Notes: generated by a model not told the origin, from the letters alone. DNA of 64,000 nucleotides from an uncultured Candidatus Poseidoniales archaeon (GCA_964014545.1 CAXGZX010000002.1:521-64520); one strand, 5' to 3'; counted from the first letter of the stretch, positions 23,503-28,125 are shown. A program made the numbers and translations.

Positions 23503-24327
23503 ATGTCTTTGCGAATTACTCACTTAGGAACAGGTAGCCGAGGCAACTCAACGCTGCTTGAAACTGATGATGTAAAGGTGTTAATTGATTTAGGATTTAG
23601 CGGCGCCCAGTTGCAAAAACGACTAGCTATGCTCAACATTAAACCTGAAGATATTGATTGCGCTCTAATAAGTCACCATCATGGAGATCATGGTGGTGGA
23701 GCGACTATTGCCCAGCGCAAATGGGACATGCAAATTTTGGCCAATGAAAGAACTGCACAGGAATTAGATTTAGACCCCTTGAAAACTTCCTACTTTGGCG
23801 CCTTGGATGTGATTAGAATCGGTGACGAACTATCAATTCTAACAGTCCCAGTCCCTCATTCTGGCTCCGAAAATGTCGCTTTTGTGGCAAGCTATGGTGG
23901 AGAAAGAGCCGCAATAATTACAGATTTAGGCTCTTGGACGGATGAGTTAATCAAACATGTATATGGTTGTGAACATATCTCAATCGAAGCAAACTATGAT
24001 GATCAGAAATTGAGCGCTGGACCATATCCATATTCTTTGAAAGAGAGGATTCGTGGCAGAGGAGGTCACTTATCCAACAGTCAAACTGGACAATTTCTTG
24101 CTGAAGTCAGTACGGAGAGTACGCGAAATATAGTACTTACACACCTGAGTGAAAAAAATAACTCGCCGCACCTAGCAGAGTCTACCGTATTATACTACAT
24201 CTCAGAAGTATTTGAGGGAGACATATACCTTTCATTACAAGATGGTCCAGAAATGACTCACTATATAGGAGCAAGCGGTCTAGAAAATCTTACGCCCACT
24301 AAACTAAATGAAGTCAAGATTGACTAA
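23503..24327 (+). CDS. Metallo-beta-lactamase-fold hydrolase
   Basis: ITHLGTGSRGNSTLLE...VLIDLG, the HxHxDH motif ISHHHGDHGGG, and later metal-ligand contexts VPHSG and LTHLS. Confidence 0.8.
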   Translation: MSLRITHLGTGSRGNSTLLETDDVKVLIDLGFSGAQLQKRLAMLNIKPEDIDCALISHHHGDHGGGATIAQRKWDMQILANERTAQELDLDPLKTSYFGALDVIRIGDELSILTVPVPHSGSENVAFVASYGGERAAIITDLGSWTDELIKHVYGCEHISIEANYDDQKLSAGPYPYSLKERIRGRGGHLSNSQTGQFLAEVSTESTRNIVLTHLSEKNNSPHLAESTVLYYISEVFEGDIYLSLQDGPEMTHYIGASGLENLTPTKLNEVKID

Positions 24328-24356
24328 AAAATAGTCTGATTTAGGTCAATACCTAA

Positions 24357-25436: not shown

Positions 25437-27658
25437 AACATAATCTAACCAGAAATGAAGAGTCTGTTTCTGCAGCAATTGCGACAGTTTTATTATTTGG
25501 TGGAGTTGTTTCAATCATCGGTTTAATGCTGGTTTCAATGCTTCCAATAATTGAAGAATTAGAAGGTTCAATAGAGCGCGACGATATGTCTTCACAAATG
25601 ATGATTTTGTCTCAGCAAACTGAAATTTTAAGCGAGCATGGCATGCCTGGCGACTCTACTGAAATAGATTTAATACCAATTGACGGAACCCTCTCGTGGG
25701 ACACTACAAGAGGTGGAATGTGGTATTCATCTACTTGGAATAGCGACACGACATTTAGGATGAAAGGAGTATTAGACTTCGATGATTCAATACAAATAAA
25801 ACATCCTGAGAGTAAGTCTACTTCGGTTTGTTTTGACGACCTAAGATTAGGCCCGACAAAGCCATTCATCTATTCCATTCCAGATTACATAGAAGAAATT
25901 ATGATTAGTCCAAACCAAGGAATCGCATCACCACTTGGGCCAATAGAAATCAAAGTGAATTCTGCTGAGCTATTTATCGAAAAGATTGATTTGAACATCG
26001 GTTCTACCATTAAATTAACCACTACTGAATTCCAATCTTACAAACTTGAGTCTACTCATGAACTGAACATATTGGCAAGTTTAGGTAGCGGCGGTGGTAC
26101 TATTTTTATGCCAGATAACCCCAGTCAAAGTGATTTTACCGGCAGGTCTTGGAGCATACCAATGAATCAAGGTAACAATACAGTACACATCATGAGTGAA
26201 ACATCTAATCAAATTGAATTGATGGTAGATGGACAGGAAACCAGACATATTGTCACCAATGATGAGGACCCAAGAATTGGTGTTTCATGGACACATACAA
26301 TCGATTTGGATTCACCAAAATTAGTATCTCTTTCAACAAGCGCACCATCACGACTTATTCTGCTAACATCAGACAATAATATGACAGGTAGCGTAACCCT
26401 CCAATCGACTTCTGGTGCTCTAATCGGCTCGGAGTTCATCACACCTCAGCTAACTGGAAGTATAGAATTATTCAACCCAAATGAAGAGATCGCAACTATC
26501 ACTTGGAAAGGGGGAGGAATTTCAATTCAAGCAGATTCAACTGTAATCATACCATGGCCGCCTCAAACTGTTAATGGTGCACCAATTATCGATTCAGATA
26601 AAGAAATATCAGCATATTGGCATAATAATGATTCCATTAATCCAAGTAACGGATTGAATATAATTCCAGCAAAAGATACTGGGTTTTCCTCTGGAAAAGT
26701 CCATACATATGAGATATTTTCCAGCAATGGACTAGAATCAATACACACTCAATTAGCAGGATATACTTCAGTTCTAAACTATTCAAATACTAACTCTGCT
26801 AATCAGAATCTTACCTTCAATAATCCGTTCCATAACCTGCAAACAAGCCAAGGCAGCCATAATGTTTCTGTGGAAGATGGGCACCCAATTAGAGTTCACC
26901 GGAGTACTGGAGACTCGGGATTGAGTCAATTAATGCATGATGGAGAACAGAGATGTGTTGGAATTAATACCACGGCAAGCGGATGGATAACTACAGAATT
27001 GCCATGGAATTCCGTTTCTGGTAGAAGCGAAGGTCAAATTATGAATGCTTGGAATCAAGGAACACATCCCTCGAGTTACTCGATAAGTCTAATTGGTAAT
27101 AACGGAAAGACTGACCATCAAATCATTGCGTCATCGTGGATTTTCCACATCTCTAGACTTACTTATTCTTTCTCCTCTTCTATTACCGGACTTGAAGTTG
27201 CTTATTCTAACGGAGCAGTACTAACAAACCATCCAGAATTTTTACCTACCGTATTGAAACAACCAAATGACAGATCTGGACCAGGACCCCGGTTTGCAGC
27301 AACAATTCCTGCACTAAATCCTACCGCAGATAGTGCATCTGGTGCGGGTGTAATGAATTTAGATATAGAATTGGCATACAGAGAGTCATTAGCGTCAGAT
27401 ATTGCATATGAAGTAAGACGTGGGTGGTATAGCCCATATGGTGAAGAGATTGCAAATTCTGCAGCCAGTGGTCTAGATTCTAGTGTAGATTGGACGATTT
27501 ATCCTGGGCGATTGGATTTGCTCACAGATTATGTGGGTTGGGTCCCAGATCCAAGTATCGGAACCTCGGAAGCGGTTTGGCACACCAATGGTGATCCAAT
27601 TCAATTTAGTTTACAACTATCCTCACTTGATGTAACAATGACGGAGGCTGTTGGATGA
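25433..27658 (+). CDS. Large pilin-like surface protein (class III signal-like N terminus), 741 aa
   Basis: LTRNEESVSAAIATVLLFGGVVSIIGLMLV at the N terminus. The start overlaps the upstream stop as ATGA (25433-25436). Confidence 0.55.
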   Translation: MKHNLTRNEESVSAAIATVLLFGGVVSIIGLMLVSMLPIIEELEGSIERDDMSSQMMILSQQTEILSEHGMPGDSTEIDLIPIDGTLSWDTTRGGMWYSSTWNSDTTFRMKGVLDFDDSIQIKHPESKSTSVCFDDLRLGPTKPFIYSIPDYIEEIMISPNQGIASPLGPIEIKVNSAELFIEKIDLNIGSTIKLTTTEFQSYKLESTHELNILASLGSGGGTIFMPDNPSQSDFTGRSWSIPMNQGNNTVHIMSETSNQIELMVDGQETRHIVTNDEDPRIGVSWTHTIDLDSPKLVSLSTSAPSRLILLTSDNNMTGSVTLQSTSGALIGSEFITPQLTGSIELFNPNEEIATITWKGGGISIQADSTVIIPWPPQTVNGAPIIDSDKEISAYWHNNDSINPSNGLNIIPAKDTGFSSGKVHTYEIFSSNGLESIHTQLAGYTSVLNYSNTNSANQNLTFNNPFHNLQTSQGSHNVSVEDGHPIRVHRSTGDSGLSQLMHDGEQRCVGINTTASGWITTELPWNSVSGRSEGQIMNAWNQGTHPSSYSISLIGNNGKTDHQIIASSWIFHISRLTYSFSSSITGLEVAYSNGAVLTNHPEFLPTVLKQPNDRSGPGPRFAATIPALNPTADSASGAGVMNLDIELAYRESLASDIAYEVRRGWYSPYGEEIANSAASGLDSSVDWTIYPGRLDLLTDYVGWVPDPSIGTSEAVWHTNGDPIQFSLQLSSLDVTMTEAVG

Positions 27659-28125
27659 AAACTAAACTTTCGAAAAGCGATGACATCAGTGGTGCAGCCA
27701 CTGAACTTGGATACATCTTCACTTTCTTACTTGGAGTAATGTTGTTATCTGTATTCAGTATTTGGACATGGGATATTGAAACTGCAACCCGCGATAGATG
27801 GAATGAACAGGCCGTCAAAATGAATTTAGACGATATTGCTGATGCCATTGAACGAGCTGATGAAGCTAGTAGACTTGGCGATATTGAATATACCGAATCC
27901 GTATGGTGGAGAGCTACTGAGGCTGACGAAAATTTGTTTACCTTACAATTGTCTGATAATTACTTAATTTTAGTTGACGAAGGAGGTCCACTAGATACGC
28001 AAGTCTACGTTTCAGGGGCAGGTGCAGGCGGGCATAGTGGAACTGTAAATTTGTCTGGAGCTCAAATGGTTTGGATATGTCACAAAGATGGTGTTACAAG
28101 TATTGAGGTTGATAGGCCCCAATAA
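27655..28125 (+). CDS. Small pilin-like protein (class III signal-like N terminus), 156 aa
   Basis: LSKSDDISGAATELGYIFTFLLGVMLLSVFSIW at the N terminus. ATGA overlap with the upstream gene (27655-27658) and GGAGG 7 nt upstream. Confidence 0.5.
   Translation: MKTKLSKSDDISGAATELGYIFTFLLGVMLLSVFSIWTWDIETATRDRWNEQAVKMNLDDIADAIERADEASRLGDIEYTESVWWRATEADENLFTLQLSDNYLILVDEGGPLDTQVYVSGAGAGGHSGTVNLSGAQMVWICHKDGVTSIEVDRPQ

Follow-up and report, generated by a model that had tools for sequence, protein, structure and literature searches.

A coupled triad of pilin-like genes in Marine Group II archaea and its probable type IV pilus-like machinery encoded elsewhere in the genome

The window analysed here is a stretch of 64,000 nucleotides from an uncultured Candidatus Poseidoniales archaeon (GCA_964014545.1, CAXGZX010000002.1:521-64520), and the element under study is a set of three translationally coupled genes for pilin-like proteins, named P1, P2 and P3. 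Names attached to close homologues place the host in Candidatus Poseidoniaceae (Marine Group IIa, MGIIa); its assembly of 1.87 Mb, 85.6% complete, is spread over 202 contigs, with the window on contig C2. The triad is probably the trans-encoded, pilin-like subunit module of a euryarchaeal type IV pilus (T4P)-like machine with its motor and platform proteins on contig C8. Two explanations were offered by the original prediction, a pilin-like set served by machinery encoded elsewhere and a novel type of surface complex built from pilin folds. The former is supported, and the C8-type ATPase is specified by gene order in other Thermoplasmatota; the latter is not needed. The triad consists of three open reading frames (ORFs) behind a gene for an MBL-fold hydrolase, and the ORF calls bear out the coordinates and sizes first given for them:

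24357-25436, plus strand: P1, pilin-like protein of DUF7289 type, 359 aa
25433-27658, plus strand: P2, giant pilin-like protein, 741 aa
27655-28125, plus strand: P3, small pilin-like protein with weak DUF7266 affinity, 156 aa

Linkage of homologous genes to PilB and PilC in other Thermoplasmatota

Among 301 Thermoplasmatota genomes, DUF7289 is found above its cut-off in 128 and DUF7266 in 37. At least 18 genomes from outside Marine Group II possess a DUF7266 gene about 1.1 kb downstream of a DUF7289 gene on the same strand; P3 lies directly 3' of the DUF7289-type P2, also on the same strand and with a 4-nt overlap. Twelve of these DUF7289-DUF7266 loci (L137-L148) were fetched. In 10 of them an ATPase gene and two PilC-like genes are located within 1-7 kb on the same strand, and this ATPase shares 44-52% identity with the C8 enzyme of the host, compared with 31-34% with the PilB-type ATPase of a second T4P-like locus, on contig C11. 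In L141, for example, DUF7289 (389 aa) and DUF7266 (201 aa) genes are followed by the ATPase, PilC and PilC genes and then by three pilin-like genes. Of the two remaining loci, one is cut by a contig end, and the other (L138), from another family, contains a detached set of proteins of 1097 aa, 1259 aa and 154 aa, the last a DUF7266 protein, followed by three further pilin-like genes, in a layout that matches the triad of the window. The same association is encountered in the sister order, Marine Group III (MGIII), where an operon encodes a DUF7289 protein (330 aa), an ATPase with 56% identity to the C8 enzyme, two PilC proteins and two proteins of 146 and 126 aa that resemble those encoded at C8:22016-22860.

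The association between pilin-like genes and PilB/PilC is thus in trans in the host genome and in cis for the homologous pairs in 10 of the 12 loci and in MGIII. On the simplest reading, a single ancestral operon came apart in Marine Group II: the ATPase, the two PilC and the small pilin-like genes would have stayed together, as on C8, while the DUF7289/DUF7266 part, with its DUF7289-type gene duplicated and one copy enlarged, would have come to lie between the MBL and STAND genes.

Pilus and archaellum machinery in the host genome

As was claimed for the 64 kb, no pilus machinery is found near the triad: contig C2 has no match to T2SSE, T2SSF or Peptidase_A24, and all T2SSE and T2SSF matches of the genome are located on other contigs. 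The suggestion that PilB, PilC and PibD genes be sought in the rest of the genome led to two PilB/PilC loci, an archaellum operon and a candidate peptidase, which together with related genes are:

C8:22016-27102: C8 locus, 510-aa PilB-type ATPase, PilC/TadC-like proteins of 339 and 537 aa and two small pilin-like proteins (C8:22016-22860)
C11:9549-15148: C11 locus, 412-aa PilB-type ATPase, two half-size TadC-like proteins and a 126-aa protein
C11:4250-4744: Pilin_N pilin, 164 aa, 36.1 bits, passing the Pilin_N cut-off, 5 kb from the C11 machinery
C33 and C58: archaellum operon split over two contigs, with two archaellins, FlaF/G-like genes, FlaH, FlaI and FlaJ
C118: PilT/KH-type ATPase
C5:44896-45882: candidate FlaK/PibD-type peptidase, ORF of about 330 aa, found through weak Peptidase_A24 matches in relatives

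One of the two small pilin-like proteins of C8 is weakly DUF7261-like. The Pfam model Peptidase_A24 has no match anywhere in the host genome. The candidate on C5 nevertheless contains both aspartate motifs of FlaK/PibD, W-M-D-H-K-T-R-R-V-K-N and I-H-G-G-A-D-A-K (pattern D-x3-RRV(K/P)N and GGAD(A/C)K), and matches Arc_PepC_II with E 3.9e-6 and 27.8 bits, near the cut-off of 29.9. The original prediction had allowed for a genome that lacks prepilin peptidase altogether, and this does not apply to the host. Peptidase_A24 passes its cut-off in only one of 41 Poseidoniaceae genomes, and the divergent enzyme is encoded at loci L043-L047. Pipelines that use Peptidase_A24 alone would probably report archaella-bearing Poseidoniales genomes as free of peptidase.

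Two further observations concern these loci. The C11 machinery directly adjoins two genes whose products (307 and 564 aa) seem to be OB-fold/RPA-like, with one weak match as support (Ssb-like_OB, E 0.007), and this arrangement is conserved in the complete genome G012 of the same genus (L085:3725-9527); a DNA-handling role of the C11 T4P-like machine is conceivable. The N-terminal 360 residues of FlaI (C33:1-1082) share 43% identity with FlaI of G012 (C1:1649901-1650638, L071), compared with 87% for the C11 ATPase, and the archaellum locus may have been replaced or may form a hypervariable island within the genus.

Conservation and distribution of the cassette

A P2 orthologue is present as a single copy in 100 of 101 Poseidoniaceae genomes, covering all 12 genera, with 32-67% identity. 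Gene order is identical in one representative each of 11 of the 12 sampled genera (12 loci): a 1930-aa TSP3 giant on the minus strand, then the MBL, P1, P2 and P3 genes on the plus strand, then the STAND gene, a 1466-aa giant and an S8 protease on the minus strand. Larger-genome genera of the sister family Thalassarchaeaceae keep the triad in the same order. Because of this near-universal presence, and because order and coupling are kept, the word "orphan" originally given to the triad is misleading; it is a family-wide syntenic core cassette in a conserved envelope island.

P2 is found in six genera of Thalassarchaeaceae with genomes of 1.6-2.2 Mb and is absent from five streamlined genera with genomes of 1.3-1.5 Mb; a class-wide search found no P2 orthologue outside the order Poseidoniales. 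The comparison of genomes that the original prediction proposed thus yields both a conserved triad order and a clean three-gene absence in five genera. To follow the machinery across this divide, 10 triad-positive and 11 triad-negative Thalassarchaeaceae genomes were compared. Orthologues of the C11-type ATPase (73-77% identity) occur in all 10 positives and in none of the 11 negatives, and those of the C8-type ATPase (80-85% identity) in 8 of the 10 positives and again in none of the negatives. The two genomes without a C8-type gene are fragmented metagenome-assembled genomes (MAGs), and the gene is present in other genomes of the same genera. At the level of genera, all six triad-positive ones possess both ATPases and the five negative ones neither.

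The peptidase is found in 10 of 10 positives and, among the negatives, only in G133. This genome belongs to genus g20, which is triad-negative and keeps the archaellum only, and its peptidase gene directly follows FlaJ. The distribution of the peptidase therefore follows the T4P and archaellum ATPases together. The FlaI-type ATPase, on the other hand, is absent from at least four triad-positive genomes (G102, G104, G166 and G168). Because there are positives without FlaI, the triad follows the non-archaellum systems and not the archaellum.

Neighbouring genes and the surrounding island

The genes that flank the triad are:

23503-24327, plus strand: MBL-fold hydrolase, 274 aa (Pfam Lactamase_B_2, E 9e-15), upstream flank, outside the pilin module
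28126-30654, minus strand: wHTH-STAND NTPase-TPR, 842 aa (Pfam AAA_16, TPR_12, TPR_MalT and HTH_Crp_2), convergent downstream flank

The linkage to these two genes had been called unexplained; it is positional, as both persist and abut without the triad. The MBL gene is present in 22 of 22 Poseidoniales genomes tested, including all 11 triad-negative ones. In the triad-negative island (L089, L090 and L094) a giant gene is followed by the MBL gene and the convergent STAND gene, abutting or overlapping, and then by a second giant and the S8 protease. A functional link of the triad to the MBL hydrolase or to the STAND protein is rejected, since triad-negative genomes keep both in an island that is otherwise intact. 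The triad behaves as a separable cassette of three genes, cleanly missing where it has been lost.

In at least 15 MAGs from several genera and both families, the contig ends at a distance of 48-52 kb from the P2 orthologue. Assembly thus seems to break repeatedly at a fixed distance on one side of the island, for example at a repeat, at an rRNA operon or at a hypervariable island.

Protein families and predicted structures

P1 matches Pfam Pilin_N (PF07790) with E 5e-4 and 21.3 bits, below the gathering cut-off of 25.2, and DUF7289 (PF23960) with E 6e-4 and 19.9 bits, below the cut-off of 27. P2 matches DUF7289 over residues 12-91 (E 1.5e-4, 21.9 bits, same cut-off). Pilin_N has no match to P2 or P3 of the window in Pfam, and P3 of the window has no Pfam match. 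Many P1 and P2 orthologues carry a precomputed PF23960 assignment, and 10 of 29 P3 orthologues match DUF7266 (PF23928), with a best E of 2e-6; in the genome search two are at the cut-off of 27.6 bits, and orthologues from genus g12 score 26-27.7 bits over model positions 2-121/131. The suggested affinity to archaeal pilin families is therefore seen in the orthologues, and in the window itself it is sub-threshold for P1 and P2 and missing for P3. Besides Pilin_N and DUF7289, the triad proteins give weak matches to UpsA and to the solved archaeal pilins 8gi2, 9myg and 8fj5. With the DUF7289 protein of MGIII (39.8 bits, encoded beside the PilB operon) the P1 profile can be aligned across 264 columns, at a probability of 94.6%. 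In P2 only the first 80-145 residues or so are related to DUF7289, and the likeness between P1 and P2 is confined to the N-terminal 45-145 residues or so.

Several other comparisons gave little. P2 aligned by hhalign with the large pilin-like proteins of L129 and L138 shows at most N-terminal similarity, and the P2 and P3 profiles returned nothing meaningful from PDB sequences. An exhaustive HMMER search with the P3 profile reached only 61 clusters, mostly fragments, and did not clearly reach haloarchaeal DUF7266. Literature searches on DUF7289, DUF7266 and DUF7261 returned no papers.

P1 begins with a variable leader (about 26 aa) and continues with an N-terminal helix and a globular domain rich in beta structure. 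Its AlphaFold2 model, built from the family alignment, has a predicted local distance difference test score (pLDDT) of 85.3 and contains a disordered leader (residues 1-22), a helix (25-83) and then the beta domain. The corresponding model of P2 (pLDDT 87.7; predicted template modelling score, pTM, 0.86) has a helix at residues 9-69 followed by about 670 all-beta residues in about 50 strands. With N-terminal helices of 59-61 residues and a beta-rich globular part behind them, both models match the "lollipop" plan of pilins. Fold searches found only generic beta-sandwich and jelly-roll structures, with TM scores of 0.24 or below for the P2 model in PDB and BFVD and E of 0.02 or above for the P1 model in PDB; neither model has a meaningful structural neighbour, and no function can be read from the folds. 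P2 is conserved over its N-terminal 150 and C-terminal 170 residues and varies in between, as would be expected of an exposed domain. N-glycosylation sequons number 0.6-1.1 per 100 aa in the triad proteins, raw counts that look unremarkable.

N-termini and class III signals

The N-termini originally cited for P1, P2 and P3 are correct, and they are the most conserved parts of all three proteins, with a conservation over 12 genera far above chance expectation. In the following motifs ^ stands directly after position -1. The consensus is [DE][DE][AG]^VSE(V/I)(L/I)GV(V/I)M(M/L)LAMV for P1, with EEG^VSEVLGVIMMLAMVVTIMGG in the window, and E[ED]A^VSAA(V/I)ATVL(L/M)FGGV for P2, with NEES^VSAAIATVLLFGGVVSIIGL in the window. 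P3 possesses the invariant motif A-(T/S)-E-L-G-Y-(I/V)-F-T-F-L-L-G-V with an invariant Ala at -1.

Class III signals were examined by our own implementation of a FlaFind-like rule, defined as a charged residue at -2 and G, A or S at -1, followed by a hydrophobic stretch. The class III pattern claimed for all three proteins is confirmed by this rule in P1 and P2 and not in P3, so that the case of no class III signal at all, also considered in the original prediction, does not arise. The acidic -2/-3 pattern of P1 and P2 is shared with the C11 Pilin_N pilin of the same genome (EDEA^VSPVIATV). P3 has an Asp near -5, D-x-x-(A/G)-A^, and in this resembles the archaellins of its own genome, DN(Y/I)AA^(I/M)GIG.

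Proposed assembly and alternative explanations

According to the preferred explanation, a single message with translational coupling would yield P1, P2 and P3 in a constant ratio, and the proteins would insert into the membrane through their N-terminal hydrophobic helices. The divergent aspartyl peptidase of FlaK/PibD type at C5:44896-45882 would cleave off the leaders of P1, P2 and probably P3, and the C8 ATPase and platform would incorporate the proteins into a surface filament or a short stalk. The very large all-beta part of P2, with its variable centre, would face outwards and probably mediate adhesion, while P1 and P3 might act as adaptor or priming subunits. A tip or priming complex is hinted at by the translational coupling of the genes and by the pattern of conserved and variable parts in P2. 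A more ambitious version is possible but doubtful. It holds that the triad forms a tip or stalk complex of its own, that P2 presents in it an all-beta adhesin domain not seen before, and that this complex is the main device for attachment to particles and phytoplankton in MGIIa and in larger-genome lineages of Marine Group IIb (MGIIb). Its loss with the two PilB systems would then mark the switch to a purely free-living, streamlined life in five MGIIb genera.

Several points weigh against the C8 assignment or against a pilin-like role in general. No triad protein of the window reaches any Pfam gathering cut-off. P3 has no charged residue at -2 and fails the strict class III rule, and no significant alignment was obtained by hhalign between P3 and two individual DUF7266 proteins. 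The co-loss described above could in part reflect general genome streamlining, and the low-depth RNA contigs that match the triad (see below) could include DNA carry-over. At the level of genera the C8- and C11-type ATPases co-occur perfectly with the triad, and the profile cannot separate them; C8 is therefore preferred on the basis of the gene order found in other lineages.

The sub-threshold scores and the P3 signal also agree with a different explanation, that the triad proteins are ordinary type II signal-anchor proteins forming a static surface complex, unprocessed and not assembled by PilB/PilC, which corresponds to the second explanation of the original prediction. So do the lack of machinery in cis and the globular domains without structural neighbour, and uncleaved pilin-like anchors are known in archaea from FlaF and FlaG. 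This explanation is unlikely. The DUF7289-DUF7266 pairs lie close to PilB-PilC-PilC in most of the loci fetched, and the MGIII operon has the same association; loss of the triad goes along with loss of both PilB-type ATPases and of the peptidase; and the [DE][DE][AGS]^VS of P1 and P2 is the motif of the bona fide C11 Pilin_N pilin. The triad might also serve the C11-type system, with its 412-aa ATPase and split TadC, or both systems interchangeably, instead of C8 specifically. Counted by genome, the C11-type ATPase fits the triad slightly better than the C8 type, and paralogous ATPase/TadC modules can share pilin sets, according to Makarova et al. (PMC4858521). The adjacent ATPase is nevertheless of C8 type in all 10 cis loci and also in L129, L130, L131, L135 and L136 (41-56% identity, versus 30-34% to C11), the two genomes without a C8-type gene are fragmented MAGs with congeners that have it, and the C8 locus itself contains the weakly DUF7261-like gene, of the same haloarchaeal DUF72xx group. 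Service to C11 is thus considered quite unlikely.

An accessory role in the archaellum, of the FlaF/FlaG kind, is most improbable. It is suggested by Joint Genome Institute (JGI) names of some P1 homologues, "flagellin-like protein" or "FlaG/FlaF family flagellin". However, the C33/C58 operon already has FlaF/FlaG-sized genes of its own, and the phylogenetic profile, with at least four triad-positive genomes that lack FlaI and a genus, g20, that has an archaellum and no triad, rejects it.

Relation to known systems

The closest known systems are the euryarchaeal clade-2 ATPase/TadC modules, which, according to Makarova et al. 2016 (PMC4858521), possess two tadC-like genes per locus and work with trans-encoded pilins. 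PilB3-PilC3 of Haloferax volcanii with its dispersed PilA1-6 is an example of this clade-2 or "System 2" type (Makarova et al. 2016; Sivabalasarma & Albers 2026, PMC13705601). The host resembles this type in that the ATPase/TadC module and the pilin set are located at different loci, the machinery locus contains two TadC-like genes, several T4P-like loci exist beside the archaellum, the class III signal peptidase is a shared loner gene, and large adhesin-like proteins are associated. It differs in that the triad is a fixed, coupled set of 359, 741 and 156 aa instead of small PilA-type major pilins, and in that the lineage is the uncultured Marine Group II.

A signature minor pilin, arCOG02911, is described in the same paper (PMC4858521) as FlaFind-positive, all-beta, duplication-prone and 250-550 aa long; it is probably the same family as Pfam DUF7289. 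P1 and P2 share with it the FlaFind-type signal, the all-beta fold, the tendency to duplication and the variable length, and they look like a duplicated pair. P2 with its 741 aa exceeds the range of arCOG02911, which is usually encoded beside an ATPase, and the window proteins are below the DUF7289 cut-off. The Thermoplasmatota operon of DUF7289-DUF7266-PilB-PilC-PilC type (L137-L148 and L130) has the same arrangement, with the DUF7289 type first and the small DUF7266 type last, and the same C8-type ATPase, and its small downstream pilin-like genes are similar to C8:22016-22860; Marine Group II differs in having the pilin pair apart from the ATPase operon and two copies of the DUF7289-type gene. 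No new kind of system is involved; the triad is a detached and expanded pilin module of a known euryarchaeal T4P-like kind.

In bacteria, minor-pilin complexes are formed by low-abundance pilin-fold proteins that act as a unit at the filament tip. By analogy the triad may be compared with GspI-J-K of type II secretion systems (T2SS) and FimU-PilVWX-PilY1 of type IVa pili (T4aP), in which a few pilin-fold proteins are likewise encoded together and one has a large extra domain. No relationship of the triad to these complexes was found in sequence or fold. The large extra domain also recalls, in concept, modular pilins such as PilB of Streptococcus sanguinis (PMC8179133).

Few archaea are as abundant in the surface ocean as those of Marine Group II, which remain uncultured. 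The case for their attachment to particles has up to now been built mainly on "flagella" genes, from which Rinke et al. 2018 inferred adhesion. In the present analysis three filament systems with distinct distributions are separated in these genomes, a core cassette without annotation is linked to one of them, and a divergent prepilin peptidase candidate missed by the standard Pfam model is identified. Streamlined lineages tend to have lost the cassette together with both non-archaellum PilB systems and with the peptidase, while the last of these stays with the archaellum in g20. The triad could therefore serve as a genomic marker to distinguish attached from free-living lineages, with P2 as a candidate adhesin. 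The interest of the cassette rests mainly on the abundance of its hosts, the unmatched fold of P2 and the clean pattern of presence and absence.

Junctions and expression

Both junctions in the triad read ATGA, at 25433-25436 (P1/P2) and 27655-27658 (P2/P3), as originally described. Overlaps of 4 nt or gaps of less than 10 nt between the triad genes are retained in nearly all relatives. A Shine-Dalgarno-like AGGTGG is situated 11-16 nt 5' of the P2 ATG and a similar GGAGG 8-12 nt 5' of the P3 ATG. The stop codon of P3 (TAA, 28123-28125) immediately adjoins that of the STAND gene (28126-28128), and the spacer between the MBL gene and P1 is 29 nt long; both had been reported correctly.

Transcription is suggested by metatranscriptome contigs of 150-280 nt with 95-100% identity from four independent marine runs, which map to the MBL, P1, P2 and P3 genes (window positions 23300-28300). 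One of these contigs crosses the MBL-P1 spacer. They constitute weak evidence that the triad is transcribed and are too short and shallow to define the transcription unit or its ends.

The start of P1 is preceded in three genera by a conserved AGGTCAAT(A/G)(C/G)CTAAATG. A leaderless promoter for P1, with an A-rich element about 27 nt upstream, was considered and dropped, since the conserved Shine-Dalgarno-like AGGTCAAT..CTAAATG precedes the start in relatives. In some relatives from the same genus (L014, L020 and L023) a perfect hairpin, CCCCCC-N4-GGGGGG, separates the MBL stop from the conserved AGGTCAATGGCTAAATG context of the P1 start. The genome of the window has no such hairpin in this spacer; in the strains that have it, the hairpin might separate the transcripts of the MBL gene and the triad.

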